A stretch of 64,000 nt of DNA from contig CAWEJX010000004.1 in the NCBI GenBank assembly GCA_963809485.1, positions 96,001 to 160,000 on the forward strand, given 5' to 3'. Position numbers and translations under genes: made by a program. This document shows, piece after piece, positions 6,935 to 64,000 of this stretch. The notes under the pieces were generated by a model, which worked only from the letters and a program-made list of their open reading frames with translations, ran no database searches and was not told the DNA's origin. Position 1 is the first letter of the stretch; each line of letters starts with the position of its first letter. The stretch comes from an uncultured Acidobacteriota bacterium (lineage in GTDB: Bacteria > Acidobacteriota > UBA6911).

Positions 6935-7069
6935 ATCCGGGCTTTCAGTTTATTGACCTCGCTCAGGAATCCCAAATAGCCTGATAGCAAAAAATATCGC
7001 CAATCTTCATGCAGATTACTTTTGTTGATTTTCTATTGGAGTTATTGCGAGATTGCGCAACAATTTATT

Positions 7070-10986: not shown

Positions 10987-11047
10987 ATTACGCCGGCGGC
11001 GATTCCGGTTTTCCCTGCACTGGTTTGTCTCTACGGCAGAGGAGCTT

Positions 11048-12727
11048 CTACCTCCACTTGTCGACCTCGACGCTCTGCAGATACATCAGTCCGCCGATGC
11101 TGTAGTAATTGTTGTTGGTTCCGCCGGTGACGATGATTTCCATCGCATTGGGCTGGAACCAGGGCTCCTGCCCTGCCGGCGCTTCCATCAGGTATTTCTT
11201 GAAATCATCAATCGTATTGTAACCGGCATTCTTGACAAAATTGGCGATCGGCGGGCTGAGGACCGCCGTGGCGCCGAAAAGGAACGGGGCCTGTGTGATA
11301 AAGATATCCTTGATGATCTTGGGGAAATTCATCTCTTTGCCCCAGACGTTGGCCCTCCAGTTTTTCGCCGATAGAACGCCCCATCCTTCAAACAGGCTCA
11401 CGATGTTCTGGTTCGGCTTGAAGCCCTTTCGAACTGAAAATGGCTGCCACGGGGAATCGCGCTCGTTCTCGGCAATGACGATGTTGATCAGGTTCATGGG
11501 ATTCCCCACGGTGCCCATGTAGGTCGTCCCCACTTTGCCGCAGTTGCCCAGGTTGATGGCGATCAGGCTCCACGCTCTTCCAATGGTGGTATTGGCATGG
11601 GCATACGGCCCCAGCGCGCCGATCTCATAGTTCAGCCCGATCTCGTCGCGGATCGCGCCGTTGATTACCAGGGCGCCCACAAAGCCGTTGTCGGACACCG
11701 AGATGGCTTCCTTTCCGGTGGACGCCACCGCAAGCAGCAGCGGCAGATATTCCGGTTTGCAGCCGGCCATGACTGCATTCACGGCAACGTCTTTGACCGT
11801 GAAGGTCCAGTACTCAAAATAGCCGCCGGTGTTGGTGGGCGACATCTTGCCGACAATTTCATCGGGATCGTGGCTGGTTCCCTTCAGCATGTCGGCGACC
11901 TTCTCCTCGGTCGGCAGAACCACCGGCAGGAAATCGGTCCACCGCTTTTCCAGAAACATCTTCTGAAGATTATCGGGAGTATCCGTAAATGTAGCCGGGC
12001 CTTTGTCCCGGACCAATTCGCCGGTCCTCTTTTCTTCAGCCGTCAACGGCTTGGTCAGATGCTCGACGATTTCCTGCATGACGTTCTTTTTGCTGATCGG
12101 ACTGATGCCGTTGACGACATCCCGGCGCAACTGTTCGCGGGTTTTTCCCCAAACCGGACCGCGAACCCACTCGATGCGCAGGCCGGGCATGCCTTTGAGA
12201 AGGGCGGCCTCTGTTTCCTGTTTGTAGAATTCGGAAAGGACCAGCGGAACGGCGGGAATACCCATGCTTGCTTCGAAATTGATGGAGTGGCCGACAACTG
12301 CCGGCGCACATTGGCTTCAATGGCCCATCCCGATGATTACGGCAGCGGCATTCTGCTTGATTTCGGCCCACAACTGCGGATCTTCAGCCTCAAAGCCCAT
12401 GCCGCCTTTTCTCTTGAACACAACCTTGGTCTTGGGCATGTTCTGTGTAAACCAGTCCACCATTTCGAGCAGAAGGTTGTCTCCTCCCACAAAGCCGTCG
12501 TCGACAATGTAGATTGTTTTGCCGTCGAGGGAGGCCGGACGCGGCGCCATTGATTTCAGTTTTACAGGGGGAGGATTCCCCAGCGGATTAAGCACCGTTA
12601 TCCTGGTCTCAGCGGAGGCTGCCGCCTTATTCCCCTGTGCCATAGCCTGATTGTCCAAAGCCGGGAAGCCGCAAAACAGGCCCAGGCAGAGCGCCGTAAT
12701 GACGGCCGTCGATATAAAGCCCTTCAT
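11048..12727 (-). CDS. exported UGSC-like selenoprotein (559 aa, Sec137, GMGH-U-SQC)
   Basis: ORFs 12317..12727 and 11048..12265 are in frame across a TGA at 12319-12317; signal peptide; SECIS-like hairpin; colinear with the uninterrupted paralog 25619-27379. Confidence 0.88.
12290..12305 (-). promoter_or_regulatory. bacterial SECIS-like hairpin GCCGGC-AGTT-GTCGGC
   Basis: starts 11 nt after the UGA; G in the apical loop; same geometry in three paralogs. Confidence 0.75.
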
Positions 12728-13294: not shown

Positions 13295-13390
13295 ATTATG
13301 CTGCCGGCGTCGGAATCCTGCCCGAATTGTCGTAATATGCCGCATAATAGCCGACTATTGATGTCGTCGAACACAAAGGAGGTTCGCATC

Positions 13391-25215: not shown

Positions 25216-25618
25216 GGGGGATCCCTCCTCAAGAAAAATTAGCCTGTTTCTGGAGCCGTCCTGTGACGCATGGACCTTTCCGAGCAAGCATAATAAAAGG
25301 ACACTAAACCGATGTCCGTGCATCAATAGGCAATCGGACAGAAACAACAATGCTCTTTGAGGCATTTTTATCACGAATGCGCATCCTGCCGCAACACGGG
25401 AGACAGATAACCGGATTTGCAGGTCTACACCCGAAGCTGCTAGCCGATTTCCATGCGTCAGGCCCAGCGGGTTCTCGAGACTCCACGGTCCGGGGAAACA
25501 TAGTCAAAAAAATCGGCAGCGTCGTGAGATAATGCGCAGATACCGCTTGCTGTCCGCATCAAGGAGGCAAGAAGTGAAAAACGCCAGGAATCCCGGCTCA
25601 AGCTTGGAGGGTAATTCA

Positions 25619-27379
25619 ATGAAAGAGAAAGTTGCGTTCACATGCCTGAATCCTCAGGGTGCAGTCGATATCGCCGCTCCTGCGGGTCTGACCGCTCCCC
25701 GCGTCAAAGACCTGGCCGGCAAGAGAGTCGGCATTTTCTGGGATGGCAAAAAGGGCGGCGACAACTTCTGCATCGCGCTGGAAGAGGCTCTGAAAAGGAA
25801 ATATCCCACAGCCCGGTTCATCCGCCTCGTATGGGGAGACGTCGAGGCGGCGGAGAAAAGCAAAAACGAAGTGGACACATTTGTCTTTGGTGTCGGCGAT
25901 GCGGGAATGGGGGGATGGGGCCAGTGCCGGAATGTAATGGACCTGGAAAAACTCGGCAAACCCGGAATTTTTGTAGTGGGAGAGAATGCCATTCACACGG
26001 CAAGAATGTCGGCGCGCGACTCGGGAATGCCCGGATTGCGGATCGTGAGCCTGCCTTCCATAGATTATTACCCCAACCGCTCGACGGCAGACGGACTGAG
26101 ACCTGTGGTAGAGGCACGCATAAGCCTCATTATCGACGCCTTAACCAAACCCCTGACGCCCGAGGAGAAGAATCCATCTTTGATGCCGCAAAGAGAGTTT
26201 CCGGCAAAAGTCAGGATTTCCGCCGAGAGCTATGAATTCGCACTGGATGAGTTCAACCGGGTATACCTCGAAAACCATTGGGGGGACGGCTTACCCCTTA
26301 TTCCTCCCACAAAAAAAGCCGTCAAGCGGATGCTTTCGGGGACCAAACGTTCCCCGGACGAGATTCTGGGCAAGATCCCCTTCCGCAACGGAATTGCCAC
26401 GATCGGGAAGGTGGCTGTGAACGCAGTGATGGCGGGCGCCAGGCCGGAGTACCTGCCCGTGATCATCGCCGCTATCGAATGCCTTGCCGAGGAGGGCTCC
26501 TTTTCTCACATGATGAGTTCGGAGGGCTCGTTCACCCTGATGATCATGGTCAGCGGGCCTATCTGCAGCGAGATCAACATGAATTCCGGCGTGGGACTGT
26601 TGGGCCATGGATGGCAGGCCAACAATACCATCGGTCGTGCCGTAAGATTGTGCATGACGAACCTGGGATATCTATGGCCCGGAGAAATCGATATGGCCCT
26701 GATCGGCCGCCCTTCCTCGCACACTTTCTATACCTTCGCCGAAAACATGGAGCAGAGCCCCTGGGAATCATTCAACGCGGGCCTGGGTTACGGGCCTGAG
26801 GACAGCTGCGTAACGCTTTCCACGGTTGGCGGCGCCGGTGGATTGGGCATGAAGATATACGGCGGAGGCGTGGTGGAACCCTGGGATGCTGCGGAGGTCC
26901 TTCAAAGCATGGCTGAGGAAGTGGCCGGCGATAGGGCGATATTTGCGGCTTACAAACTGGGAGTCGCCAATTATTTCGCTCATTTCCGCAAGCACATCAT
27001 GATCATTCATCCCGAACTGGCGATCATGCTGCAGCGTCTCGGATACAAAACCAAACGCAGTTTGCGCGACTACTTTTACGAGAGCTCAAGAGTGCCGTTT
27101 GAAGAACTCACCCTGGATGAGGTCAAGGGCTTAAGAGACAGGATGAACACAAAGCCGGGCGGAGTGTTCTTTGCGAACGATTCGATTGCCGCAAGCCAGC
27201 TTCCGCTTTTTAAGGCAGCTCTCAAACCGGGCGGCAAAGTCCCGGTAGTGAACCCCGACGACATCCACCTGATTGTCTCCGGCAGCATACCGGGATATTC
27301 GTTCGGCATGTCGTATATGCGTTCGGCGCACAAAACAAAACGCATCCAGGGGGCCAAGTTAACACGGTCCGGCCGCTGA
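25619..27379 (+). CDS. UGSC-like protein lacking Sec/Cys (GVGD-A-GMG), cytoplasmic
   Basis: colinear with the three selenoproteins (LNP.G...APR...L.GK; W.DGLP.IPPT; VAVNAVMAGA.PEY.P; ANNTIGRA); GGAGG RBS; no signal peptide. Confidence 0.85.
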   Translation: MKEKVAFTCLNPQGAVDIAAPAGLTAPRVKDLAGKRVGIFWDGKKGGDNFCIALEEALKRKYPTARFIRLVWGDVEAAEKSKNEVDTFVFGVGDAGMGGWGQCRNVMDLEKLGKPGIFVVGENAIHTARMSARDSGMPGLRIVSLPSIDYYPNRSTADGLRPVVEARISLIIDALTKPLTPEEKNPSLMPQREFPAKVRISAESYEFALDEFNRVYLENHWGDGLPLIPPTKKAVKRMLSGTKRSPDEILGKIPFRNGIATIGKVAVNAVMAGARPEYLPVIIAAIECLAEEGSFSHMMSSEGSFTLMIMVSGPICSEINMNSGVGLLGHGWQANNTIGRAVRLCMTNLGYLWPGEIDMALIGRPSSHTFYTFAENMEQSPWESFNAGLGYGPEDSCVTLSTVGGAGGLGMKIYGGGVVEPWDAAEVLQSMAEEVAGDRAIFAAYKLGVANYFAHFRKHIMIIHPELAIMLQRLGYKTKRSLRDYFYESSRVPFEELTLDEVKGLRDRMNTKPGGVFFANDSIAASQLPLFKAALKPGGKVPVVNPDDIHLIVSGSIPGYSFGMSYMRSAHKTKRIQGAKLTRSGR

Positions 27380-38876: not shown

Positions 38877-38900
38877 TGCGTCTGCCGGCGAGGCTGATGA

Positions 38901-39298: not shown

Positions 39299-39301
39299 AT
39301 T

Positions 39302-43269: not shown

Positions 43270-43440
43270 ATCGCAGCAACCTCCTGCTTGACAATTTCAC
43301 TGAGACGGCAGGTCCCGGATTCAAAGTTGCGGCTTGACCCCAAAAAGCCCGGAACCTGAACCTGAGACCCGGGGCTTTGGCTAAAAAGAGCGACAGCATG
43401 AACCACCGGGTTTATTATTAACAGTTGAGGGATTGGAAAT

Positions 43441-46020: not shown

Positions 46021-47181
46021 CTAACCCGCGGCAATTTCGTTCAACGCCGTTGCCGCCTGACGGACATCCTCCTTTGTTGAGAGAATTCCGACGCTGAACC
46101 GCACCACACCTTGAGGAAATGATCCAAGGTGTTTGTGCGCGTAGGGAGCGCAGTGCAATCCGGCGCGGACCGCTATTCCATACCGTTCATCCAGTATCGC
46201 CGCGAGTTCCGTAGGCTCGAATTCCGAAAAATTGATTCCCACAAGGCCGATCCGTCCTTCCCCCCGGCGTTCGGCAATAGCCCTGTCAGCGCCGTACCAG
46301 TTAAACAATTCAGGGGCTTTGAAGGCGCGGTAAAATTCGGCGATCAGGGCTCTTTCGTGAGCCAGGATACTTTGTACCCCACGGTCCAGCAGAAGCTTTA
46401 CGCCCTCCCGCAGGCCGGCAATTCCAAAAACATTGGGAGTCCCTCCTTCGAGGCGATGAGGCAACTCTGATGGTTGAACCGGCGACGATGAGTCTCCCCC
46501 GGTCCCTCCCTCGCGCCACGGAGACACCTCAACACGTTCTCCGACCAGTAGTCCGCCGGTCCCCGTGGGGCCGAGCAGCGCCTTGTGCCCTGTAAATGCC
46601 AGCAGATCGATGCAATCACTATCGAAATCAATCGGCACCACACCTGCGCTCTGCGACGTATCGACAAGGAAGACCGAGTTGCGTTCGCGCACAATCCTGC
46701 CTATCGTGCCGATAGCCTGGATTGTGCCGGTCACATTCGAGGCATGGGTCAGGGCAACCAGGCGTGTGGATGGCTTGAAAGCTTTTGCCACCTCATCAGG
46801 ATCGATGACGTGATCGCTGCCGGCCTGCAATCGAGTCAGCGTAATGACGCCATGCCGCTCCATCTGATTCAGCGGGCGTGAAACCGAATTGTGCTCCAAT
46901 ACGGAAGTAATCGCGTGATCTCCCGAACGGAGCACCCCCTTGATCGCCATGTTGAGCGCGTCGGTTGCATTCAACGTAAAAACCACGCGCTCCGGGCGCC
47001 TGAATCCCATAAGACGGGCAATCAACCTCCTGGTCTCATCCACCATCGCCTCCGCCTCAACGGCCAGGCGGTGGCCGCTGCGTCCCGGATTGGCTGCAGC
47101 CGACCGGATGAAGGCATCCATGCCTCGATAGACCTGCTCCGGTTTGGGAAACGATGTCGCTGCATTATCCAGGTAAATCAT
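46021..47181 (-). CDS. cysteine desulfurase/selenocysteine lyase-family class V aminotransferase
   Basis: MIYLDNAATSFPKP; FTGHK PLP-lysine; RAGLHCAP. Confidence 0.9.
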   Translation of the reverse strand: MIYLDNAATSFPKPEQVYRGMDAFIRSAAANPGRSGHRLAVEAEAMVDETRRLIARLMGFRRPERVVFTLNATDALNMAIKGVLRSGDHAITSVLEHNSVSRPLNQMERHGVITLTRLQAGSDHVIDPDEVAKAFKPSTRLVALTHASNVTGTIQAIGTIGRIVRERNSVFLVDTSQSAGVVPIDFDSDCIDLLAFTGHKALLGPTGTGGLLVGERVEVSPWREGGTGGDSSSPVQPSELPHRLEGGTPNVFGIAGLREGVKLLLDRGVQSILAHERALIAEFYRAFKAPELFNWYGADRAIAERRGEGRIGLVGINFSEFEPTELAAILDERYGIAVRAGLHCAPYAHKHLGSFPQGVVRFSVGILSTKEDVRQAATALNEIAAG

Positions 47182-47198
47182 ACTGTGCCTCCCGAGCC

Positions 47199-48245
47199 TC
47201 AGTTGCCGACATAACGAGCATAGAGGGATTTGGCAACCGCTACATCGTATGTGCCGTTGATAATGGCCCGTCCGTCAGGAAAAACGGTCAACTGATAGCC
47301 GTCAATGGTTGCTTTCAGTAGAAACCGGTTGCGTTTCAGATGGGCGAGCGGGCCGAGTCTTTGGGCCAACTCTTCCAGGTCGATCCGGGTGTCTTCACGC
47401 CGTCTGATTTGCACCGAGTTACGACCGCAGAGTGTCGTCACATCGGCGCCCAATCGTCCATCAAGATAGGCAAAATCCTTAAGCCCGCAGCACGGACAAT
47501 CGCGTTTCCGGTGAGGAGCGCCGATCGCTTCGTGGCGGTTGTCCCAAAGATCTGTGGATATTATTTTGCGGTTTACGGCTTCCCTTCTGCCTGCCAGAAT
47601 TTTAAGCGCTTCTGCCACCTGAGTCGCAGCAATGACTGAAACGATCGGGCCGATCACGCCGGCAGTGTCGCAGGAGGGCGATACGCCGGGCGGGGACGCA
47701 TCCTCGAACACGCAACGCAGGCAGGGGGTTTCTCCCGGCAGCACTGGAAATGTCAGCCCATAGGATCCCACACACGCCCCATAGATCCAGGGGACATTAT
47801 TTTTTACCGCATAGTCGTTGATCAGAAAGCGCGCCTCAAAATTATCGGTGGCGTCCATAATCAGGTCAAAGCCGCCAAGAAGATGGTCTGCGGACGCGGC
47901 ATTCAGGTCCTCAACCAGCCCTTCAACCTTGATCAGCGAATTTGCGCAGCAAAGCTTTCTCTCGGCTGCTATGGCTTTGGGCATAACAGCCTTGACGTCT
48001 TCCTCGTCGAACAGTATCTGCCGCTGCAGGTTGCTCTCCTCTACAAAATCCCGGTCGACAATGCGCAACGTGCCGACACCTGCACGCGCAAGCAGCGAAG
48101 CCTGCACCGTGCCAAGGGCTCCGCAGCCGACAATGACGACGCGCGAGGCGATGATTCGCGCTTGCCCCTCCTGACCGATTCCCTGGAATAGAACCTGCCT
48201 TGAATAGCGCGAATGCACCGGGGTAATAGTGCCTGATGTCGTCAT
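47199..48245 (-). CDS. ThiF/MoeB-family adenylyltransferase
   Basis: RYSRQ; GCGALG; DRDFVEESNLQRQ; CLRC...SCDTAG...CPCC. Confidence 0.9.
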   Translation of the reverse strand: MTTSGTITPVHSRYSRQVLFQGIGQEGQARIIASRVVIVGCGALGTVQASLLARAGVGTLRIVDRDFVEESNLQRQILFDEEDVKAVMPKAIAAERKLCCANSLIKVEGLVEDLNAASADHLLGGFDLIMDATDNFEARFLINDYAVKNNVPWIYGACVGSYGLTFPVLPGETPCLRCVFEDASPPGVSPSCDTAGVIGPIVSVIAATQVAEALKILAGRREAVNRKIISTDLWDNRHEAIGAPHRKRDCPCCGLKDFAYLDGRLGADVTTLCGRNSVQIRRREDTRIDLEELAQRLGPLAHLKRNRFLLKATIDGYQLTVFPDGRAIINGTYDVAVAKSLYARYVGN

Positions 48246-48325
48246 GGATACCTCCCGGGGCCAATGATTCCTCCATCAGCCCAGCAGCCACGATAGCCGT
48301 AACCGGCCGGCATCATGGCCAATCT

Positions 48326-49295
48326 TCATACAGGTATGTTTTGAAACAGTATTGACGAATGATACCTATCCGCGGAATCGGGCAGTATCACGACTATGAG
48401 TTTTCCCTCGTTTTCCGGCCGTGCGGCAACTTTCACGGCAGCTGCCGTCGCCGCTCCGGAAGAGATGCCCGCCGTGATGCCCTCTTCTTTGTGGAGGCGA
48501 TGGGTCATTTCAATCGCCTCGTCGCTGGTCACTCTCTGCACCTCATCCACGATGCTGAGATCAAGGACCTCCGGCTTGAAGCCGGCGCCTATGCCCTGGA
48601 TCTTGTGCGGACCTGGTTTTGGAGGTTCGCCATGGATGACAGCGGTCAGCACAGCTGATTCGGAGGGCTCAACTGCGACGCTCCACAGGGATTTGTGCAT
48701 TGCCCGCTCAATATACCGGCTCACACCCGTGATGGTTCCTCCGGTTCCTACTCCCGCAACCAGAATGTCGATCCCGCCGTCTGTATCATTCCAGATCTCC
48801 GGCCCCGTGGTCTGATAGTGGATTTCCGGGTTGGCCGGATTTTTAAACTGCTGCGGCATCCAGTACTTCTTCGGGTCCGAAGCAACAATTTCTTCGGCCC
48901 TGGCAATGGCACCCGACATCCCCTTGGCGCCCTCAGTCAGGATTACGTCCGCCCCGAACGCCTTCAGCATTCGCCTTCTTTCGAGCGACATGGTTTCCGG
49001 CATCGTCAGCACCAGCGGATAGCCCCGGGACGCTGCGACGAATGCCAGGGCTATGCCCGTATTGCCGCTTGTGGGTTCGACAATGGTTACGTCGCTGGAC
49101 CCAGGCTTCAGGATTCCGTCACGTTCCGCCGCCCAGATCATGGATGCCCCAATCCGGCATTTGACCGAATAGGATGGATTGCGGCCTTCAATTTTTGCCA
49201 CCACAACGGCGGGCAAGCCGGCGGTGATACGGTTCAGTTTGACAAGCGGGCGTATTACCGATGGAAAGCGAGTTGTCGTCATATATTTTTGCCAT
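48326..49295 (-). CDS. cysK: cysteine synthase A (+1 frameshift at 49248-49250)
   Basis: true start [15 protein letters not shown] after GGAG is one base out of frame with PLVKLNR...SVKCRIG...PTSGNTG...HKIQGIG. Confidence 0.9.
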
Positions 49296-49379
49296 ATTCT
49301 TCTCCTGATTCGCATTTCTCCCGAAATCGAAATCAACCTCCACGATCCGACGCTCAACCGAAAAGCGGGCCCCCCGTCT

Positions 49380-49827
49380 CTAGATCGAGTATGTCAGAGC
49401 CGTAGCTTTCTGCCTCCTGGCCTCATCATCGACCAGGTCCTGGAAACTGGTCCGGTCATACACATCCGAAACCGCTTTTGCCGCGCGCTTCCACATGTCG
49501 AGGAAAACACAGTTGCCGGAAAGAGTGCAGCTTCTAGCAGACATGCCGGTCATGCATTCAACCGGGACCAGAGGGCCCTCGACGAATTGCACAATCTCTC
49601 CAACCGATAATTGCGCGGGGTTGCCGGGCCAGAAAATATCCTCCCTCCGCTCCGCGCCGCGACTGGACGAATCCTGCCTGCCTTAGCTGGCCCAGGATGA
49701 CTTCGAGGAAGCGCAAAGGGATCGCCTGAGTGTCTGCAATATCACCGATCCTGATCGGGCCCTCGCCGTGCCTCCGGGCCAGTTCAAACACCGCTCGAAT
49801 TGCATACTGGCATTTCTGGGAAACCAT
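49380..49827 (-). CDS. Rrf2-family regulator (CymR/IscR-like; +1 frameshift at 49617-49620)
   Basis: [10 protein letters not shown]...[10 protein letters not shown]...[11 protein letters not shown] continues as [13 protein letters not shown]...C...C...C in the adjacent frame. Confidence 0.85.
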
Positions 49828-49899
49828 TTTACTCCGCGATGCGCTAATCGAGTGGCGCCTTGGATCACGCTATTCATGCCCGGGTCCCTGTGCATCAGT

Positions 49900-51738
49900 T
49901 TATTGCCTACTGATGACAAAAACGGCCATGTCGGCAAGCAGGTTTATGTCATCCTCGACCACACGCCCCTCCTCCGTATCCAGGGCGATGCATTCGTGAA
50001 TTTGTATTCCCCGTTTCCGGCAGAACTCCTCAAAATCGGAAATTGACAGGAAACGGATATTGGGCGTGTTGTACCATTCATGGCGCAGCAGCCCTGACGC
50101 TACAGGAGATCTTCCTTCGTCGTGGAGCATGGCGCGCAGCTTGTGATAGGCAAAATTCGGAAAACTTACGATAGATTTCCGGCCCACTCTCAACATGTCG
50201 GCGATCAGGCGCTCCACATCATGGACGGCCTGAAGGGTGTGAGACAGAACCACATAGTCAAACTGCGCATCCGCGAACGCAGCCAGGCCCAGGTTGAGAT
50301 CCGCCTGGACGACATCGAAACCCCGCTGGAGGCTGGAAAGGACATCCTCCTGGTTGAGTTCAAGCCCCAGGAGCTTCCGCTCGCCATGCAAGTGGAGCTT
50401 CGCCAGAAGCGATCCTCGGCCGCAGCCGAGATCCAGCACGCTGGCTTCCGGCTTTATCAGCTTCACGATTTGATCATAGTCAAGCCTGGGCGAGCGTTGC
50501 GCCCCGAAGATGCTCGCCGGTGCATAGATATAGACGTCGTCCTCTTCGAAGCTCCTGGGTGTCCCTTGGTGGACATTATCCAGGAAAGCGCGTACAAGCT
50601 CCCCATAAATGGGCAGATCGTCCGGCAGCAGAAAGGCATCATGGCCGCACTTGCTGGCAATGTTGCAGTAGCTGACCGGTTTCCCGAGAGCGATAAGCGA
50701 ATGCGTCAGCTCGAGGGACTGCTCCGGCGGAAACAGCCAGTCGCTGGTAAAGCTTGCTATGAGCCAGCGGCATTGTGATCGGATTAGGTTTGCCTTGAGC
50801 TCCTCCGCGGTTCGCCCGAGATCGAACAGGTCCATGGCCAGGGACAGCTTGATGTAGCTGTTGGCATCGAACCGTTCAACAAACTTGTCTCCCTGGTAGG
50901 CCAGATAGGAGCCGACGCTGAATTTCTTTTCGAACTCGGTTTCGATTTCGCGCGGCCGCAGCCGGTCTGCGCCAAACTTCTCCCGCATGGATTCCGGAGA
51001 GAGGTAGGTGATGTGGCCCAGCATGCGGGCCAGCGCAAGGCCGGCCGCAGGAACCGCGCCGTTATCGACATATTGGCCGCCGTTGAAGTTGGCGTCGCGC
51101 CGTATAGCATTGCGCCCGACCACATCAAAGGCCAGGGCTTGCGTCGTCAAGCGGGCTGAAGTGGCAAGCGCAACCGCTCCGGCCACCTCGCCGGGATATT
51201 GTATGGCCCACGTCAGGACCTGCTGGCCGCCCATGGATCCGCCGATCACCGCAAGAAGGCGGCGAACCCCAAGGTGCTGCACAAGCCTTCGTTGTGTATT
51301 GACGATATCGTGAGTTGTGATGGTCGGGAAGTCGGCTCCATACCTGCGTCCCGTTTCCGGATTCAGGCTGTTCGGCCCGGTAGTTCCGCGGCAGCCGCCC
51401 AGGGCATTCGGGCAAATAAGGAAATACCGGTCCGTATTGATCGCTTTTCCGGGTCCGACCATGATGTCCCACCAGCCGGGATCATCGGCTGCATCATGGC
51501 GAGCTACGTGGGAATCGCCGCTCAATGCATGGCAGATCAGAATGGCGTTGTCCCTGGCCTCGTTCAGCCGGCCGTAGGTCTCGTATGCCACCGCTATATC
51601 CCGGATCTGCCCGCCCAGTTCAAGCTCGAGCGGGTCCCGGAATTGGCAGCTTTGGACATGCCTGAGAGGGCGGGAGGAGCGAACGCTGTCACTGCTTTGA
51701 AATGTTTCGGCCATTTTGGCTTCACGATCCGGCTGCAT
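49900..51738 (-). CDS. metX: homoserine O-acetyltransferase fused to MetW-like methyltransferase domain
   Basis: ICHALSGDSH; GGSMGG; GHDAFL; then VLDLGCGRG...WYNTPNIR. Confidence 0.9.
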   Translation of the reverse strand: MQPDREAKMAETFQSSDSVRSSRPLRHVQSCQFRDPLELELGGQIRDIAVAYETYGRLNEARDNAILICHALSGDSHVARHDAADDPGWWDIMVGPGKAINTDRYFLICPNALGGCRGTTGPNSLNPETGRRYGADFPTITTHDIVNTQRRLVQHLGVRRLLAVIGGSMGGQQVLTWAIQYPGEVAGAVALATSARLTTQALAFDVVGRNAIRRDANFNGGQYVDNGAVPAAGLALARMLGHITYLSPESMREKFGADRLRPREIETEFEKKFSVGSYLAYQGDKFVERFDANSYIKLSLAMDLFDLGRTAEELKANLIRSQCRWLIASFTSDWLFPPEQSLELTHSLIALGKPVSYCNIASKCGHDAFLLPDDLPIYGELVRAFLDNVHQGTPRSFEEDDVYIYAPASIFGAQRSPRLDYDQIVKLIKPEASVLDLGCGRGSLLAKLHLHGERKLLGLELNQEDVLSSLQRGFDVVQADLNLGLAAFADAQFDYVVLSHTLQAVHDVERLIADMLRVGRKSIVSFPNFAYHKLRAMLHDEGRSPVASGLLRHEWYNTPNIRFLSISDFEEFCRKRGIQIHECIALDTEEGRVVEDDINLLADMAVFVISRQ

Positions 51739-51741
51739 GGG

Positions 51742-53049
51742 TTATATCTGCGATGCAGTCAAAGCCTGATCGAAGTCCTCGCGGATGTCCTCGATGTCCT
51801 CGATGCCGACTGAGACCCGTATATACTCTTGATTGACCCCGGCTTTCCGCTGCTCCTCCTCGGTCAGTTGGGAGTGGGTGGTGGAAGCAGGGTGAATGAC
51901 CAGTGTTCTGGCATCCCCGATATTCGCAAGGTGACTGGCGAGTCGGACATTGTTGATAAACTTTATCCCTGATTCCCTGCCGCCTCGAATGCCGAAACCC
52001 AGGATGGCGCCGGCGCCTTTCGCCAGGTAGCGCTGCGCAAGCTCGTAGTGCTTGTGGCCCGGCAGGCCGGGATAATTGACCCAGGTGACCGCGGGGTGTT
52101 TTTCAAGCCATTGAGCCAGCGTTAGTGCATTGGCAACATGCCGCTCCAGGCGGACATGCAGTGTTTCCAGCCCAAGCAGGAAAAGAAAGGCTGCAAAGGG
52201 ACTCATGCATGCGCCCGTGTCCCGGAGCCAATGAGTGCGGATGTGAAGGATGTAAGCCAGATTCCCCAAAGCCTTGGTCGCTTCCGTAAAAACCAGGCCA
52301 TGATAGGCTTCATCCGGCGCTGCGAATTCGGGCCATTTTTCAGGATTTTGCGCCCACGGGAACTTTCCGCTGTCGACAATTGCCCCGCCGATGTGCACGC
52401 CGTGGCCGCCGATGAATTTGGTCGTCGAATACACGACAATGTCTACTCCGTGGTCGATGGGACGGAAAAGCGCCGGAGTCAGGACGGTATTGTCAACAAT
52501 CAGGGGAAGCCCGCGCTGATGGGCGAGATCGGAGATTTTTCGGAAATCAGGAATGTCGTTTTTGGGATTGCCCACCGACTCGAGATAGACAAGCCGTGTC
52601 TTGTCATCGGCCAACCGGCTGATCTCTTCCGGATGATCAGGATCGAAGAAGCGCGCCTCGACGCCCAATTTCCTGAAGGTCTGGGAAAAAAGCGTCCATG
52701 TTCCGCCATATAAACTGGTTGAGGAGATGAAATTCTGCCCGGAATGGGCAATCGTCAGAATTGCGGCCGTAATAGCCGCCTGGCCGCTCGAGAATGCCAG
52801 GCCGCCGATTCCACCATCAAGGGCCGCCAGGCGTTTTTCGAGTACATCGCAGGTGGGATTCATCAGCCGCGAGTAAATATTGCCGGATTCCTTCAGCGCA
52901 AAAAGGTTGGCGGCATGCTCGGGACTTTGGAAAACGTAGCTGCTGGTTGCATAGATCGGGACGGCGCAGGCCCTTGTCGCCGGATCCGGTTCCTGTCCTG
53001 CATGCAGCGCCAAAGTTGCCAAACGGTGCCTGTTGCTTCCTTCGCTCAT
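51742..53049 (-). CDS. metY: O-acetylhomoserine sulfhydrylase
   Basis: PIYATSSY; IYSRLMNPT; STTKFIGGHG; LANIGDARTLVIHPASTTHSQL. Confidence 0.95.
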   Translation of the reverse strand: MSEGSNRHRLATLALHAGQEPDPATRACAVPIYATSSYVFQSPEHAANLFALKESGNIYSRLMNPTCDVLEKRLAALDGGIGGLAFSSGQAAITAAILTIAHSGQNFISSTSLYGGTWTLFSQTFRKLGVEARFFDPDHPEEISRLADDKTRLVYLESVGNPKNDIPDFRKISDLAHQRGLPLIVDNTVLTPALFRPIDHGVDIVVYSTTKFIGGHGVHIGGAIVDSGKFPWAQNPEKWPEFAAPDEAYHGLVFTEATKALGNLAYILHIRTHWLRDTGACMSPFAAFLFLLGLETLHVRLERHVANALTLAQWLEKHPAVTWVNYPGLPGHKHYELAQRYLAKGAGAILGFGIRGGRESGIKFINNVRLASHLANIGDARTLVIHPASTTHSQLTEEEQRKAGVNQEYIRVSVGIEDIEDIREDFDQALTASQI

Positions 53050-57098: not shown

Positions 57099-60000
57099 CT
57101 AAAACTGGAACCGGGCGACTATGATCCCCGCTCGAGGTGCAACGGCCACGGTAGTCGTATTGATGTATCCGAAGCCGGAAATCGTCTGGCCGGTGGCCGG
57201 GTTTCTGGTTTGCGTGGCTTGGGCGTTCGTCGATGTGGGACTATTCATCTCGGTGCGGTTGAAAATGTTTGAGAAATCCGCCCGTATATTGATCGAGATC
57301 CCCTCCTTGATCGGGAAATTGCGCGCGAGACTCATGCTTTCACCGGGCCGGCGCTGCTGCCGGTAATCGTTGTAATACGCGGCTCCGGTGCCGAATTGCC
57401 CGGCAGGCGGATCGACCCAGGCGTTCTTATTCAGAACAAATTCCTGGTTCGGGTCGATGCAATGACAGTTGAGATCCTTGGTGTAGAGGTCCTCCCCCGG
57501 TACCCGGTTGGCATAGGTGTTCTGGAAGAGCACCGAGCTGAGCTGATTTTGCGCGACCGGAGCCAGAATCGGCATGCCGCTTGCGTACTGCAAGGTTGCG
57601 CCGATCGTCCAATCCCGGAGTATCCAGGACGCAATCTTGTTGGCATTCCATGTCGGCACGGTGTAATTCGCCGCAATCACGAAAACAAGGGGCCGGGAGA
57701 GCATGGAAAGGTACTTGTTCACGCGCCGGTCGAAAACATTGTTTATCGCTGCGCCGCTTACTCCCATAGCATTCCCCTGCTGCTCCGCACCCATGGTCAG
57801 CTCTTTCTGCCAGGTAAAAGCAGCGGTGAAATCAAGCCCATAGGAATAGCGTTTGGTAACCTTTGCCTGCAAGGAGTCATACCAGGTTCTGCCAAGGGGC
57901 GCCCACATATATCGGATCGCGGGCGTACCGGTGGTCGTGCCTGCAAACTGCGGAAACGGGCGCAACGACTGGGCTACGGTAGACGACATCGGAAAGCCCT
58001 CATAGGGCGGTATGTTGAATCCGCGTTGCGCCGCCAGCGACGAATTCAGCGGAGAGGTCAGCAGCTTCCGGTCATCCGCGTTGTTGACGTTGAGCCCAAA
58101 AGAGGCAATACGCTCGGCTGACAACGCATTGACATTGATCAGGTCGTTGGCTTCCCACCAGGCGCCGCGGTTGCCGACATAGGAGATCTCCACGACCAGG
58201 TTCCTTAAGATCTCGTGCTGAATGCCAATGCTCCATTGGAACTGCCTCGGCGGCCGGCCGGCGTTGCCATCGATTGCGACCGGGGGCGCGCTGAGCGTGC
58301 CTGCAAGAGGATACAAACCGGCATCCAAGACAGGCCATGGCCTCGGAGCAGGCATGCCGTTGCGCAAGAGGCCCGCCGGATTGCCGTATGCGGGCGAGTA
58401 ATACGGGTTGCTGGAGCCGACCTTCCAGGATGCCTGATTTTCGTTGGCTGTTTGGCCGTAAGAGACGCCCAATCCCATACGCAGGACGGTTTTGGGCGTA
58501 ATCTGATATGCGGCTCCCAACCGCGGACCGAATGCATAGGGGTATACCTCCGCGAAGTCACAGTTGCACTGACCCGGTCCGGAGCCTTCATAAATCACGG
58601 CCCCCAACAGGCCGCCCGCGGATGGATTCGGGGTTGTGGGCGAGAAACTCGCGATCCGGCCGTGCGGATCCTTGAAGTACTCCTGGTAATCCCATCTAAG
58701 TCCGTAGTCGAGCGTAAATCTACGGGTAACCTTCCAGGTATCCTGGGCGTATGCCGACCATGCGGATTTACCCAGCCGGGGGTCGCTGGGAACCCCGCTG
58801 TTGCCGTCAGCAATAAGCCCCAGGAGAAAACTCGCGTAGGGGAATCCAATGGTGCCACCCTGCAAAGGCTGCCCCAGAATCGAGGGAAGACCGGTCTGCT
58901 CCACGCCGAAGTTGTAATAACCGTAGGAGGGGGCATAGAGTGTGGTGGGATATTTCTCCTGGCGCAATTCCGCGCCGAACTTCAAGGTGTGGTTATCCTT
59001 CACCCATGTAAGGCTGGCGCTTCCGGAAGGTTTGAACATAACCGATTTGGTTTGCATATAGGGGCCCATGTTGCCGGTCGCCATGCTGACCGCTCGCGCC
59101 GACATGCCGCCGCGAGCCGCCGAGAGTCCAGAAATGAATGGGAAGACGGTGTACAGAGATCCCGGAAGACCGAGTTCTTTGAGCTGGTCAAAATTGGTAT
59201 CGTATGCGGGATCCAGGAACTGCAGATTCTGGACACCGGCAGCCAAATGAAGCACCATGGTCGGCGTGACGGTATAATCAAAGGCCATCTGCGCTATATA
59301 AGACTCCTGGTCCGTATTCCTTTCGGTGGAGACCGGAGAAGGAATGCCGTCTCCCCCCGGAGGCCCGGGCGCGTGCTGGTTCAGGATATCTGTCGATGAC
59401 CAGAAGAACGAAAGCTTGGTGCGGTTGCTCAGGTTGTGGTTGATTTTGAAGGCCGGGATGGTTCGAATGTTGGGGCTGTCCCAGGGATTCAGATAGTTAA
59501 GTGTCACAGCCGCGCTCGTGGGTTCCGGAATGAGATTTTGGATCTTAACCGCGACCGGATCGAATCGGTCCTGCGGAATTGTGTTATTGGTAAACGGATC
59601 TCGAACGCGCAGTCCGTTAACGAGGCGTTCGGTCTGCGGATCGTATATCGTGCCTTCCATAATTGGACGGCCAAGGGGATCGCAATTGGGATTCGCCGTT
59701 GGACAAAGATTCTTCCCTGTCAGAGCTTGGCGGAAATCGCCGCTGCGATAAGCGAGAGTGGGCATCGTATATGTGGTATTAAACTTGGTCACCTCGCGGT
59801 ACTCCTCGAAGCTGAAAAAGAAGAACGTCTTATCGTGGCCGTCGTAAACCTTTGGGATGTAGACCGGCCCGCTGAAGGTGAAACCATAGTTGTTCCTGCG
59901 TACGCGGCTCTTCCTGTTTATAAAGGGCGTACTTGCGTTTAGCGCTTCATTGGACCAGTAGTCGTATGCGCTTCCGTGGTAGGAGTTGGTGCCGGATTTC

Positions 60001-60716
60001 ATGGTGATATTGAAATAGCCGCCGCCGGCCTGTCCGAACTCGGCGGCGTAGTTGCTGGTCTGAATCGCGTATTCCTCAATTGCGGCCATGCTTTGCTGGC
60101 TCATCCCCGTGCTCTGCTGCAGCATTCCGTTTGTGGCCTCCATTCCGTCGACCCGGATGCTCATCGAGGCGGAAGGGGCGCCATTGACGCGAAACCAGGC
60201 TCTGTTCTGGTAGAGCGTGCCCGGAAGCAGCGTCATCACCGCATAGGGATCTCGAATGATATTGGAAAATCCTAAAATGGGCAGGTTATCCACGCGCGTG
60301 CCGGTGACATTATGGCTGAGTTCGCCGCTTTCTGTTTTCAGGAGCGGCGCATCGGCGCTGACCGAAACAGTTTCGGTGATGGTGCCGACCTCCATCGCGA
60401 TATCAATGCGCAATGTCTGCGCAACCATGACCGTGATTCCGGTTCGTAAATACTGCTTGAATCCGGCCTGGGTTGCCGTGATCTGATAGACTCCGACCGG
60501 CAGTTGGGCCAGGGTGTAATTGCCAGTCGCCGAACTGACAGTCTGATAAACGGCCCCCGTTTGTGTGTTTTTGGCTTCAATCTGGGCTTTCGGGATCATG
60601 GCGCCGGCCGGGTCCGAAATGGTCCCGGTTATGGTGCCCCGGTCGCTTTGAGCCGAAGCCGGGGCTGCTGCGAAGATTAGACAAGCAACTGCAATCAAAC
60701 ATGCAACTGAACGCAT
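57099..60716 (-). CDS. TonB-dependent receptor (Oar-like, carboxypeptidase-regulatory-like N-domain)
   Basis: signal peptide; GTITGTISDPAGA; TSNYAAEFG..GGG; KSGTNSYHGS; QDTWKV..TLDYGLRWD; C-terminal RFQF. Confidence 0.93.
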   Translation of the reverse strand: MRSVACLIAVACLIFAAAPASAQSDRGTITGTISDPAGAMIPKAQIEAKNTQTGAVYQTVSSATGNYTLAQLPVGVYQITATQAGFKQYLRTGITVMVAQTLRIDIAMEVGTITETVSVSADAPLLKTESGELSHNVTGTRVDNLPILGFSNIIRDPYAVMTLLPGTLYQNRAWFRVNGAPSASMSIRVDGMEATNGMLQQSTGMSQQSMAAIEEYAIQTSNYAAEFGQAGGGYFNITMKSGTNSYHGSAYDYWSNEALNASTPFINRKSRVRRNNYGFTFSGPVYIPKVYDGHDKTFFFFSFEEYREVTKFNTTYTMPTLAYRSGDFRQALTGKNLCPTANPNCDPLGRPIMEGTIYDPQTERLVNGLRVRDPFTNNTIPQDRFDPVAVKIQNLIPEPTSAAVTLNYLNPWDSPNIRTIPAFKINHNLSNRTKLSFFWSSTDILNQHAPGPPGGDGIPSPVSTERNTDQESYIAQMAFDYTVTPTMVLHLAAGVQNLQFLDPAYDTNFDQLKELGLPGSLYTVFPFISGLSAARGGMSARAVSMATGNMGPYMQTKSVMFKPSGSASLTWVKDNHTLKFGAELRQEKYPTTLYAPSYGYYNFGVEQTGLPSILGQPLQGGTIGFPYASFLLGLIADGNSGVPSDPRLGKSAWSAYAQDTWKVTRRFTLDYGLRWDYQEYFKDPHGRIASFSPTTPNPSAGGLLGAVIYEGSGPGQCNCDFAEVYPYAFGPRLGAAYQITPKTVLRMGLGVSYGQTANENQASWKVGSSNPYYSPAYGNPAGLLRNGMPAPRPWPVLDAGLYPLAGTLSAPPVAIDGNAGRPPRQFQWSIGIQHEILRNLVVEISYVGNRGAWWEANDLINVNALSAERIASFGLNVNNADDRKLLTSPLNSSLAAQRGFNIPPYEGFPMSSTVAQSLRPFPQFAGTTTGTPAIRYMWAPLGRTWYDSLQAKVTKRYSYGLDFTAAFTWQKELTMGAEQQGNAMGVSGAAINNVFDRRVNKYLSMLSRPLVFVIAANYTVPTWNANKIASWILRDWTIGATLQYASGMPILAPVAQNQLSSVLFQNTYANRVPGEDLYTKDLNCHCIDPNQEFVLNKNAWVDPPAGQFGTGAAYYNDYRQQRRPGESMSLARNFPIKEGISINIRADFSNIFNRTEMNSPTSTNAQATQTRNPATGQTISGFGYINTTTVAVAPRAGIIVARFQF

Positions 60717-61038
60717 CGGGTGTATCCTCCTATCGCCTGCAATTTTATTGGCGCACAGAAACACGCACCGCTTATGGCTCCCTTGCCAACTTTTCGACTA
60801 TTGCATCCCCTCTCAACCTATTGCCGCATCGCATAGCTCGCTCAGATTGGCGGCGGTGACAGCGCGCCCTTCTCGGGCAACAACGTCAAGGAACGGCAGG
60901 GGCGTTATCGGGCTCCACTGAAAATCTGTTTCTGTTTGACAATATTATCTGCGGCGGTGTCCATTTGCGTGAGTTGTACGCGCCGCTACTAATGGTGATT
61001 TTAAGCTAGTCGATTTGTCAACTCGTTGTCAAGAAAAT

Positions 61039-61373: not shown

Positions 61374-63161
61374 ATGAAAAACAGAGCAAGTTGTTTGCTG
61401 ATAGGGATCTTTTGGGTGACGGCCCTTTTGTCGGAATCGCTTTGGGCCGCGGATATTACAAAGATCACGGTGCTGAATCCGCGAGGCGTTCAGCCCCCGA
61501 TACGCTTGATACCCATGGCTCCCCGCCTCGATACATTGGATGGGAAGACGATCTACGTCGTGGATACCAAGTATCCGTTGACAAGGCCATTCGTACAGGA
61601 AGTCTTCAATGTGCTCAAGGAGAGGTATCCAAAAACAAACTGGATATTCCGGGACAAAATCGGCAGCTATTTTGATGATGATCCCAAGCTTTGGGCCGAG
61701 ATCAAGGAGAAAGGCCACGGCATGGTTATGGCCGTCGGGCATTGAAGCACCTGCTCGCCGGCGGTCGCCGGCCATTGTATCTCGGTTGAGAAGTTGGGTG
61801 TGCCAAGTGCCCCCATCATTACCGAAAGGTTTCAGGACCTTGTCCGGACCATTTCATGGAAGAAGGGGGTGCCGAACATGCGCTTTACATTTGTTCCGCA
61901 TCCCGTTGCAGGCAAAGCCGCCGACATTTGCCGTCGATACTTGCTGGGCAACGATCCGCTGACAGGAAAGCCGGTTGTGGACGAACTTGTGGCGGCCTTG
62001 ACGCGACCGCTGTCCGCGGACGACATGAAGAAGGGATTTCTGACAAGAGATCCGCGGCCGAGAATGCTGAAACCTGATACCGCAGCAAACCTGGAAAAGC
62101 TATTCAATGACAGTCTGTGGACGGACGGGCTTCCTATTGTGCTTCCGACAGAAGACAAAGTCGCCGAGATGCTCAGGGCCACCAGTCACAAGGCGGATGA
62201 GACCGTAGGCACGATGCGTCCGTCGCCTCCGCACGAAGCGTGGGAATACACGGTCGAAATGGTTGCGGCCAACGCGGTGATGGCGGGAGCAAAGCCCGAA
62301 TATTTTCCGGTTATCCTGGCCCTGGCCTCAACGGGAGTGACCTCGCTTTTCACATCTACGACGTCTTTTGCCCGGATGATGGTGCTGAACGGGCCGATCA
62401 TCCAGCAGATCAATATGAACACAGGCATTGGAGCCATGGGACCTTTCAATCAGGCTAATGCCACGATTGGAAGAGCCTGGACGCTAATATCCAAGAACCT
62501 GGGCGGAGGAGGGGTTCCCGGCGAAACCTATTTGGGCAGCCAGGGCAGCAATCTCAATTACAACAATCTGTGTTATCCGGAAACGGAAGATGGCTTGCCT
62601 GCCGGGTGGAACCCTCTCCACGTGCAAAAGGGTTTCAAAAAGAACGACAGCGTCGTGAGCACCTTCACGGGCTGGAGCATCAGCAACTATGGCGGCTACA
62701 TAAGCCTGCCGCACAACGAAATCATGAAGTGGCAGCTGCAAAACTTTTTCACGAGCGGGACCGGAAGCAATGGGTCGGCTACTCTCCTGTTGGATCCCGT
62801 GGTCGCCAGAGACCTGAAGGATAGGTTTGACACAAAAGAAAAACTGGTCGAATGGCTCGCTCAAAATGCCACGACGCCGGCCTGGCATTACTGGGCTCGG
62901 GGAGAAGATCAGCTGAAACAGGCAAAATCGGGGGTCGAACCTTTTGCGTCCTATCTGAAATTGGGGGAGATTGCGTCATTGCCCGTTTCGCCCTTCCTCC
63001 GGAGGCCTATGGCTGCGAAGACTCCATCTCAAGGCAAGCCGCCCGACGGCCCTCCGCGCTCCCCGATCGAGATCATTGTGGTGGGAGGAGGCACGAATGC
63101 CTTCTGGGTTGCGGGAGACTTCAGCTATGTCTCCAGTGCTTCCGTCGACAAGTGGAGGTAA
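61374..63161 (+). CDS. exported UGSC-like selenoprotein (595 aa, Sec124, AVGH-U-STC)
   Basis: ORFs 61374..61745 and 61794..63161 are in frame across TGA 61743-61745; signal peptide ending SLWA; SECIS-like hairpin. Confidence 0.9.
61757..61772 (+). promoter_or_regulatory. bacterial SECIS-like hairpin GCCGGC-GGTC-GCCGGC
   Basis: 11 nt after the UGA; perfect 6-bp stem; loop starts with G. Confidence 0.78.
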
Positions 63162-63281
63162 CGCGCCGCAGCGAAATTCGCCCACGGAATATCCTGTGGT
63201 TTTGAGTTTCCCTATGGAGTCGCAGTGCTGACGGTAATGCACGCGGTTCATGTCCATTTTTCGTTCAAAGGAGATCAGATC

Positions 63282-64000
63282 ATGAAAAAGAGGATCGGTT
63301 GGCCGGCATTCGCAGTTTGTCTCCTTGCCTGCCTTGTTATTTCGTGCACCCAAAATCCGGAACAGCGGACGCTTACGGTCTTGAATCCTGTCGGCTCGGC
63401 TTCTCCGACTCCGCTGATCCCGATGGCGCCTCGCCTGGATACGCTGGAAGGAAAGACCATCTATATCGTGGATGTGATGTATCCGCTCACTCATCAGCTA
63501 TTCGAAGAAATGCAGAAAGTGCTGTCCGAAAAATACCCCAAGACGAACTGGGTGGTCAAAAGCAAGGCGGGCACCTACTTTGATAATGACCCTAAACTGT
63601 GGGAAGAAGTCAAGGCGCAAGCCCAGGGAATGATCATAGGCGTCGGCCATTGAAGCAGCTGCACGCCGGCGGTCGCCAGCCATGCTATTACGGTCGAGAA
63701 ACTTGGAGTGCCCACAGCCCCCATCGTCACCAGTCGATTTCAGGATGTCTCAGAAGCCACTGCCGCCAGCAAGGGCATGCCCCGGGCACGATTCACTTAT
63801 ATCCATCACCCGGTTTCGAACAAGCCTGCGGCGGAGTGCCGAAAATACATCGAGGGCAACGATCCTTTGACCGGCAAACCGGTGGTTGAGGAGATTGTAG
63901 CCGCTCTAACCAAACCATTATCGGATGAGGATAAAAAGACCGGGTTCGTGGAAAAACCTCGGGAAAGGCTGCTAAAACCCGATACAGCGCAGAATCTGGA
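63282..64000 (+). CDS. lipoprotein UGSC-like selenoprotein (Sec124, GVGH-U-SSC), runs off the window
   Basis: lipobox-like LVISC; TGA 63651-63653; the frame stays open (SSCTPAVASHAITVEKLGVP...KPDTAQNL) and aligns with the upstream paralog. Confidence 0.88.
63665..63680 (+). promoter_or_regulatory. bacterial SECIS-like hairpin GCCGGC-GGTC-GCCAGC
   Basis: 11 nt after the UGA; same loop as the 61757 hairpin; one C-A mismatch. Confidence 0.7.

Follow-up and report, generated by a model that had tools for sequence, protein, structure and literature searches.

Proteins with a UGSC motif form an established selenoprotein family to which no function has been assigned (PMC1976440, PMC2398784, PMC9312934, PMC13188914; table in PMC5029168). 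The family has been known since 2007-2008, is believed to be thioredoxin (Trx)-like in fold (PMC2398784, PMC13188914, PMC1976440), and ranks among the most abundant selenoprotein families of aquatic metagenomes (PMC2398784). Zhang and Gladyshev described a 'UGSC/Unknown_1 fusion' in 2008, the fused domains of which hold a conserved Cys (PMC2398784), and Acidobacteria have been listed with three selenoprotein families (PMC1794560). Here, we analyzed 64,000 nucleotides of the genome of an uncultured Acidobacteriota bacterium (contig CAWEJX010000004.1, positions 96,001 to 160,000 of the forward strand), referred to below as the window. At its 3' end lies a gene, here called p3, that opens with ATG 63282 on the forward strand, contains an in-frame TGA codon and belongs at the domain level to this known selenoprotein family. 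In our judgment, p3 is probably the 5' part of a 586-codon gene encoding an exported redox selenoprotein, probably lipid-anchored, in which a UGSC domain is fused to a second domain.

A 586-codon gene split at an in-frame TGA

An original prediction, based on the letters of the sequence and a list of its open reading frames (ORFs), had placed a hidden selenoprotein with a lipoprotein-type signal at this site. The frame that opens at ATG 63282 (its translation begins MKKRIGWPAFAVCLLACLVISCTQNPEQ) does contain a single in-frame TGA, which, as had been stated, is codon 124, in the context GVGH-U-SSC (U, selenocysteine). No further stop interrupts the frame between the TGA and the window end, making 239 codons in all, and it aligns with paralogue 2 (p2) as had been claimed, with 55% identity over residues 1-239. 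In the standard (table-11) ORF list, the gene is split into an ORF at 63225..63653, which stops at the TGA, and a 3'-open ORF at 63708..63998, so that, again as noted earlier, the continuation is missing from the list. The choice of ATG 63282 as the start is backed by the orthologue in L002, the frame of which opens only 3 nt 5' of the homologous start.

The window holds the first 41% of the gene. P0272, a database protein of 444 amino acids (aa) that is marked as window-encoded and whose longest contig has 470,668 bases, is identical over its first 97 residues to the ORF at 63708..63998, and it runs without an early stop to the C-terminus GDFRYLASASIDKWK (...YLASASIDKWK); its final ...ASASIDKWK resembles the ...DKWR-like ending that the original prediction had anticipated. 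From this identity and the intact C-terminus, it follows that the gene has 586 codons and that no early stop lies beyond the window. Orthologues were found in a genome scan in an Acidobacteriota metagenome-assembled genome (MAG; L001, 97% identity), in an Acidobacteriota chromosome (L002, 84%) and in L003 (71%), and each has 586 codons with one in-frame TGA at codon 124. The positions of the features are collected in Table 1.

Table 1. Positions of p3, its elements, its paralogues in the window and related genes in other genomes.
Feature	Position	Strand	Basis or remark
First 239 of 586 codons of p3	63282..64000	+	Remainder past window end; P0272, orthologues L001, L002
Shine-Dalgarno-like GGAG	63270..63273	+	8 nt 5' of ATG, read in sequence
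Predicted signal peptide, residues 1-21	63282..63344	+	n-region KKR, hydrophobic core
Lipobox V19-I20-S21-C22	63336..63347	+	C22 is the predicted lipidated first mature residue
UGSC domain (PF24696), residues 33-189	63378..63848	+	Pfam profile match
In-frame TGA, codon 124, predicted to be read as selenocysteine	63651..63653	+	Conservation, alignment with L008 selenocysteine
U-S-S-C redox motif (UxxC)	63651..63662	+	Sequence; CxxC homologues
SECIS-like hairpin GCCGGC-GGUC-GCCAGC	63665..63680	+	C·A mismatch at third pair; 17 nt from UGA to loop
Terminator-like hairpin with T-run	63182..63199	+	In 120-nt p2-p3 gap; consensus match only
Paralogue 1 (p1)	11048..12727	-	559 aa, U137 (GMGH-U-SQC), hairpin 12290-12305, AGUU loop
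Paralogue 2 (p2)	61374..63161	+	595 aa, U124 (AVGH-U-STC), SPI-type leader, perfect hairpin 61757-61772
Paralogue 4 (p4)	25532..27379	+	615 aa, motif GVGDAGMGG without selenocysteine or Cys; without leader, without hairpin
Orthologues of p3	L001 166..1926; L002 6001..7761		Genome scan
Downstream small protein gene	L001 1940-2506; L002 7766-8338; L003 6239-6805; L007 7718-8335		Loci read

Probable decoding of the TGA as selenocysteine

The TGA lies inside a match to the Pfam UGSC profile (PF24696), which p3 reaches with 111.7 bits against a cut-off of 25 (E = 5.5e-32); p2 and p4 score 92.2 and 54.4 bits. By BLASTP, GVGH-U-SSC of p3 was aligned with GLAD-U-GSC of L008, a standalone UGSC gene found in the same scan, and U124 matches the selenocysteine (Sec) of L008. 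The family to which these proteins belong is large, with 4122 cluster representatives at E <= 0.001, of which 310 match at E <= 1e-30. When 12 related genes were read as DNA (three genes of the window, seven loci and two further copies from L004), a TGA was found at the homologous codon in all 12. The ratio of nonsynonymous to synonymous substitution rates (dN/dS) was 0.03-0.15 both upstream and downstream of the TGA; for p3 and L002 it was 0.084 upstream and 0.062 downstream, and for L001 and L002 it was 0.026 over the 462 downstream codons, with dS about 2.3. With purifying selection on either side of the codon and a single Pfam domain across it, these comparisons strongly support the reading that UGA124 is decoded with a continuing polypeptide, and that it corresponds by homology to the Sec or Cys in the UxxC/CxxC motif of UGSC proteins. 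The hidden selenoprotein of the original prediction thus gains support from the domain across the TGA, the alignment with a known Sec, the purifying selection and a hairpin that is described below.

Could the TGA be a true stop? In that case, p3 would be a pseudogene, or the locus would hold two genes, one for a secreted lipoprotein of 123 aa and the other, from GTG 63708, for a protein of 444 aa. Such a division is what annotation records, since not only the table-11 ORF lists but also all close database entries are split at the TGA. The 17 relatives that are at least 77% identical to the orthologue, among the 120 matches listed, are all fragments of 421-446 aa, so that none of these closest relatives is full-length. 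The p2-type matches are split likewise, and 118 of the 120 best N-terminal-fragment clusters, which were examined as protein sequences, end in ...GH, the two residues that immediately precede the TGA where DNA was read. Yet the single domain spans the TGA, and the 18 codons from the TGA to GTG 63708 are conserved in frame with synonymous changes between p3 and L003. Homologues without Sec have Leu, Met or Cys at this position and are single polypeptides of ~590 aa, and the stop would have remained TGA in 12/12 genes even though TAA and TAG account for about half of the normal stops. Moreover, the GGAG in front of GTG 63708 abuts it without a spacer, and the second product would be leaderless while its partner domain is exported. 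A true stop therefore appears highly improbable to us.

We give almost no credence to another possibility, that the TGA is read as Trp, Cys or Gly through near-cognate decoding or a variant code. Two public relatives, P0164 and P0177, show a Trp in their translations where the Sec codon lies, but this is apparently, and most simply, the outcome of a gene caller's choice of a TGA=Trp code for their contigs. In the window, TGA is an ordinary stop that ends 13 of the 29 tabulated ORFs (27 supported by Pfam, plus p1 and p2; one of the 29 was tabulated at a wrong coordinate and reads TAA), including relatives of the gene itself; furthermore, the position is that of the redox Cys/Sec of a known selenoprotein family, and a conserved hairpin lies next to it.

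Some observations count against assigning p3 to the family as a selenoprotein. The first concerns the NCBIfam equivalog NF041046, which has a cut-off of 125 bits: the p3 fragment scores 79, the full-length orthologue 75.6, and p1, p2 and p4 score 50.9, 62.4 and 42.4, whereas L008, taken as a control, passes with 128.8. Since the equivalog cut-off is missed and that of PF24696 is exceeded, p3 is a domain-level relative rather than a member of the standalone equivalog. The second concerns the motif itself, which is covered by 52 representatives among the 150 listed. The U position is occupied by Cys in 20 of them (18 as CxxC), which speaks in favor of selenocysteine in p3, and by Trp in two, and the other 30 have S, T, M, L, A, P, H, K or an alignment gap (two rows). 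Therefore, 32/52 have neither Cys nor Sec at the motif, and the forms from Dehalococcoidales mostly have Leu. Third, no tRNA-Sec (and no tRNA at all) was detected by ARAGORN within the 64-kb window, and no selA, selB or selD gene was found there. We nevertheless favor the decoding of UGA124 as Sec, for the reasons given above.

A conserved hairpin downstream of the TGA

A hairpin of the form GCCGGC-GGUC-GYCRGC starts 12 nt past the UGA codon in 12/12 genes. Across these genes, 68 of the 72 pairing cells are paired, and the loop is GGUC in 11 genes and AGUU in one. The selenocysteine insertion sequence (SECIS) of Escherichia coli fdhF has a GGUC loop too, at about this distance. The published model of bacterial SECIS elements (bSECIS) has a loop of 3-9 nt that lies 16-37 nt from the UGA and bears a G within its first two positions, an upper stem of at least 4 bp and a minimum free energy of -7.5 kcal/mol or lower (PMC13188914). 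The hairpin of p3 fits this model in its 4-nt GGUC loop, its 17-nt spacing and the position of its G, and its stem is formed by 3 bp, a C·A mismatch and 2 bp, with the top three pairs and the loop intact.

The hairpin is also marked by constraint at synonymous sites. We compared the 24 alignment columns in which all 10 sequences have the same fourfold-degenerate residue: at the three such codons within the hairpin, 10, 9 and 9 of the 10 sequences agree in the third base, whereas none of the 21 outside it reaches 9 of 10 (mean, 5.5). In p4, the paralogue without Sec, there is no hairpin at the corresponding place.

Several results, on the other hand, weaken the case for a functional SECIS element. 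The C·A mismatch is shared by p3, L001 and L002, and the minimal hairpin, at -6.6 kcal/mol, is weak; in eight of the other nine genes the values are -8.2 to -12.8 kcal/mol (-12.8 for p2), and in L005, which keeps only five pairs, the value is -6.7 kcal/mol. Thus, p3, L001, L002 and L005 miss the -7.5 limit, if that limit is applied to the minimal hairpin alone. A covariation test found compensatory changes in 0/6 pairs, with counts not above those of shuffled alignments, a result that does not count as negative, and hence the support at the RNA level comes from conservation. RNAfold of the 45-70 nt after the TGA of p3 did not select the hairpin, and the 70-nt stretch folded no better than its shuffles (z = +2.10). 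A search of the whole window with Rfam gave no family at the gathering thresholds, and permissive settings around the hairpin gave only matches at chance level (E 6-9).

The mismatch arises from a Gly-to-Ser codon change (GGC to AGC). If this change broke the SECIS stem, most ribosomes might stop at UGA124, and p3 would be a poorly decoded or decaying paralogue; the difference in hairpin energy from p2 and the failure of RNAfold to select the hairpin would agree with this. However, the same mismatch is present in L001 and L002, in which the 462 downstream codons are intact at the dN/dS and dS given above, and neither the GGUC loop nor any of the top three pairs is broken. Because the mismatch is old (84% protein identity, dS above 1) and the downstream codons have remained constrained, decoding must still work, and we consider decay very unlikely. 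The reading that we prefer is that the hairpin takes part in the decoding of UGA124.

A lipoprotein-type leader and three probable routes of export

The leader of p3 begins with K2 K3 R4, followed by uncharged hydrophobic residues at 5-18 and then by V-I-S-C22. The standard lipobox is [LV][ASTVI][GAS]C (PMC8048626). V-I-S-C22 matches it exactly and is followed by a polar tether, TQNPEQRT; the lipobox Cys is present in the orthologues L001, L002 and L003. We surveyed relatives with the 123-residue N-terminal part as the query, which gave 322 proteins at E <= 1e-10, and examined the best 120 of these 322. A full leader was present in 112 of the 120 fragments. In 71 of these 112, a Cys lies 10-16 residues ahead of a conserved NP motif, and the other 41 leaders resemble those cleaved by signal peptidase I (SPI) and lack the Cys. 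Among the 71 leaders with Cys, the -1 residue is A in 43, S in 16 and G in two (61/71), T in eight and V in two; the -3 residue is F in 54, L in eight and another residue in nine; and the +2 residue is T in 45. A stricter PROSITE pattern matched 56 of the 120 fragments. Consequently, the lipoprotein-type signal of the original prediction is supported by the lipobox match and by a Cys that is conserved across a large clade; cleavage by signal peptidase II (SPII) before C22, along the Sec/SPII export pathway, is what this pattern and conservation would predict.

On a quick tree of the fragments (93 columns), from which the eight with an incomplete leader among the 120 were omitted, the Cys label is strongly clustered, requiring 5 changes compared with 33.4 in shuffles. 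The idea of a single clean lipobox clade was given up, because 5 changes are needed; the approximately unbiased (AU) test gave p = 0.098 for 69 rows held together, so that the monophyly of the lipobox rows is not rejected and the clade is not shown.

How might the Cys be explained if p3 were not lipidated? The protein would then be an exported selenoprotein that is cleaved by SPI or that is anchored in the membrane by its uncleaved leader, and the Cys would have some other function. The leaders of p1 and p2, like the 41/112 mentioned above, are plainly of the SPI type without Cys, and, among the relatives with Cys, F at -3 (54/71) and T or V at -1 (10/71) fall outside the standard lipobox, which also tells against lipidation. 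One L004 copy combines a twin-arginine leader (SRRAFI; twin-arginine translocation, Tat) with GH-U-STC, which indicates that the export routes of the family are flexible. Nevertheless, the lipobox of p3 itself is an exact match to the standard, the Cys is held at a fixed distance from the mature domain in 71 sequences with a polar tether next to it, no A-x-A-type site is present ahead of residue 22, and the neighboring partner gene described below is likewise of the lipobox type at the same loci (3/3). We therefore regard a non-lipidated p3 as unlikely, although it deserves some weight, and lipidation at C22 as the better reading. Taken together, the SPI leaders of p1 and p2, the lipobox of p3 and the Tat leader in L004 suggest that the family is exported by three routes.

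Structure of the fusion protein and proposed function

An AlphaFold2 model of the L001 orthologue, built from a 73-row alignment, had a mean predicted local distance difference test score (pLDDT) of 88.4 and a predicted template-modelling score (pTM) of 0.86. Residues 7-23 form a low-confidence helix (pLDDT 55-65 in the blocks covering residues 1-30, and below 50 at residues 23-25), and the folded domain begins at about residue 31. U124 is placed between a strand (116-122) and a helix (127-140) of an alternating beta/alpha domain, and a strand-to-helix junction is the usual site of a redox-active CxxC. A Foldseek search of the PDB with the full-length model gave no match at E <= 0.001, the best template-modelling (TM) scores being 0.14-0.18; the best sub-threshold matches were to flavodoxin-like and periplasmic-binding folds. 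A profile search of PDB sequences with the family alignment gave no match at E <= 1.

A C-terminal domain of ~350 aa is common to all four paralogues, p1-p4, and is matched by no Pfam or NCBIfam family. In the ESM Atlas, the nearest clusters to this domain are unnamed standalone proteins of 357-371 aa, with no usable named cluster once PF24696 is excluded. By these searches, the C-domain would represent a new fold. In the mature p3-type protein, Cys or Sec occurs at only four positions, namely U124, C127, C186 and C399. Of the 73 family members aligned, 70 retain C399, among them forms that lack the redox motif. In many cytoplasmic homologues from Dehalococcoidales, the Sec position is taken by Leu, and members that lack the motif are common; the activity of the C-domain can therefore not depend strictly on the redox motif, a point that limits the reading of this protein as a redox enzyme.

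We propose the following sequence of events. The hairpin at 63665-63680 would guide SelB and Sec-tRNA(Sec) in decoding UGA124, and the pre-protein would be exported via the Sec translocon. C22 would be lipidated by Lgt, and SPII would cleave ahead of it, so that the mature protein may hang from the membrane into the periplasm on its short tether. There, U124 and C127, at the strand-to-helix junction of a predicted Rossmann-like alpha/beta domain, could cycle between the selenol/thiol and selenenylsulfide forms. Such a redox centre would serve the fused C-terminal domain with its nearly invariant C399, or a substrate bound there, and the small secreted beta-sandwich protein that is encoded downstream in relatives would be a probable functional partner. 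We infer that p3 carries a periplasm-facing UxxC module, a selenol/thiol oxidoreductase, and that either this module serves the C-domain or the C-domain serves it.

Paralogues and gene neighborhood

Directly 3' of the fusion gene in L001, L002, L003 and L007, and beside four L004 copies, lies a gene for a protein of ~188 aa, which was not seen in the L005 locus; the L006 locus ends too early to tell. In the present genome, this gene would be expected just past the window end. The small protein has a lipobox beside 3/3 genes of the lipobox type and an SPI leader beside 5/5 genes of the SPI or Tat type, and this agreement between its signal and that of the neighboring selenoprotein suggests that it is probably a functional partner. 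It was modelled as a beta-sandwich (pLDDT 80.1), with Foldseek matches to MPT63, YxkC and YcdA at E 1.3e-4 to 6.6e-4, and 5/8 members match DUF4352 weakly. A complex prediction with residues 90-444 of P0272 and residues 40-188 of the L001 small protein, which covered the C-domain without the N-terminal UGSC domain, gave a score of 0.00 against a mark of 0.32, which has no bearing on binding either way.

Another contig of the MAG of L001 (L004 1-12681) carries at least four UGSC-fusion copies in 12.7 kb, interleaved with four small beta-sandwich genes and a gene for a FAD_binding_2 flavoprotein with a Tat signal. A Tat-exported flavoprotein of this kind was considered as a constant neighbor of the fusion genes and was set aside, as it holds in L002 and L004, but the FAD protein adjacent to p1 in the window is only 28% identical and lacks a Tat leader.

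In the window, p2 and p3 are neighbors, and the terminator-like hairpin between them suggests that these two Sec paralogues may be transcribed separately. Upstream and divergent lies a gene for an outer-membrane protein resembling TonB-dependent receptors (57099..60764). The fourth paralogue, p4, is a cytoplasmic, non-redox family member in the same genome, and a cupin-domain gene adjoins it. The p1 gene is flanked by direct repeats of 96-98% identity (10612-11001 and 13080-13309). The repeat is also represented at 4127, 8113 and 39201, and a 45-nt core of it occurs five times in all on the forward strand of the window (0 expected by chance). It contains inverted repeats and appears to be a repetitive element of intergenic regions.

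Elsewhere in the window, positions 7022-7753 encode a protein of the C_GCAxxG_C_C family (PF09719), the ORF of which, as called, has no in-frame TGA; this family is listed among prokaryotic selenoprotein families (PMC13188914). Positions 36208-46013 hold a CusCBA-like efflux operon of the resistance-nodulation-division (RND) type, with OEP, a membrane-fusion protein with a heavy-metal-binding domain and an AcrB-type pump, followed by genes for a sigma-54 response regulator and a histidine kinase. Genes related to sulfur amino acids occupy positions 46024-53049 on the reverse strand (a class-V aminotransferase, a ThiF/MoeB-like protein, PALP, a MetX-MetW-like fusion and a pyridoxal phosphate (PLP)-dependent Cys/Met enzyme).

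Implications

The window represents an expanded, exported UGSC branch in Acidobacteriota, with three paralogues that have Sec and one that lacks it within 64 kb, and three of the fusion copies on the related contig L004 were read with the Sec codon. Because gene callers split such genes systematically at the TGA, counts of the selenoproteome of soil Acidobacteriota are too low, and domain-based annotation misses the ~350-aa domain, which has no fold match. A canonical lipobox on a selenoprotein offers a simple biochemical point of entry for initial work on the function of the UGSC family. We also put forward, tentatively and as a proposal that we think may well prove wrong, that the Sec-containing UGSC fusions of Acidobacteriota and Thermodesulfobacteriota constitute an unrecognised periplasmic selenoenzyme system, with export by SPI, SPII and Tat routes, a signal-matched MPT63-like partner and a catalytic C-domain whose fold and enzyme class would have neither a solved nor a curated relative. 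If this were true, soil Acidobacteriota would carry several-fold more selenoproteins than are annotated, and these would perform extracytoplasmic redox chemistry.

Comparison with known systems

Exported selenoproteins have precedents. The DsbA-like selenoproteins are exported. Like them, and like the DsbG-like and peroxiredoxin (Prx)/Trx-like selenoproteins, p3 has a redox motif of the UxxC or CxxU type at a strand-helix junction, and Cys homologues exist; unlike them, it gave no sequence or fold match to thioredoxin-fold proteins. As for lipid anchoring, a [NiFeSe] hydrogenase reportedly lacks a typical lipoprotein signal peptide, to judge from the title of a 2007 report by Valente. The [NiFeSe] hydrogenase of Desulfovibrio vulgaris Hildenborough is, like the proposed p3 product, a Sec enzyme with an N-terminal lipid at the periplasmic face of the membrane (PMC7349357). 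It is, however, a metalloenzyme that is unrelated to p3 in sequence, whereas p3 begins with a lipoprotein leader of the textbook Sec type and contains the UxxC motif. The original prediction had called a membrane-anchored, lipidated selenoprotein unusual; this is fair, but such a protein is not unprecedented, because the [NiFeSe] hydrogenase is already lipid-anchored. A search of one library of papers, judged by titles, found no relevant paper that links selenocysteine with a lipobox, and none that joins selenoprotein, bacterial lipoprotein and hydrogenase.

With the UGSC family, p3 shares the PF24696 match, a Sec that aligns with that of the family and a UxxC motif. Canonical members are standalone proteins with the motif U-G-S-C (the NF041046 profile has 147 positions, and the matched stretch of L008 has 170 aa), and p3 differs from them in its U-S-S-C motif, its export signal, its fused ~350-aa domain and its score below the equivalog cut-off. 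In addition, the model of the p3 type points to a Rossmann- or flavodoxin-like alpha/beta domain, in contrast to the Trx-like fold proposed for the family. The closest described architecture is the UGSC/Unknown_1 fusion, to which p3 was compared by description. The C-domain of p3 likewise holds one nearly invariant Cys (C399), and its nearest clusters are standalone proteins of 357-371 aa; passages of the 2008 paper on the fusion mention no signal peptide or lipobox (PMC2398784). The UGSC family, a UGSC fusion (2008) and a lipidated selenoenzyme were thus already known, and what is new here is the canonical lipoprotein leader, the expansion in Acidobacteriota, the triple export routing, the matched beta-sandwich neighbor and the systematic mis-annotation of these genes.

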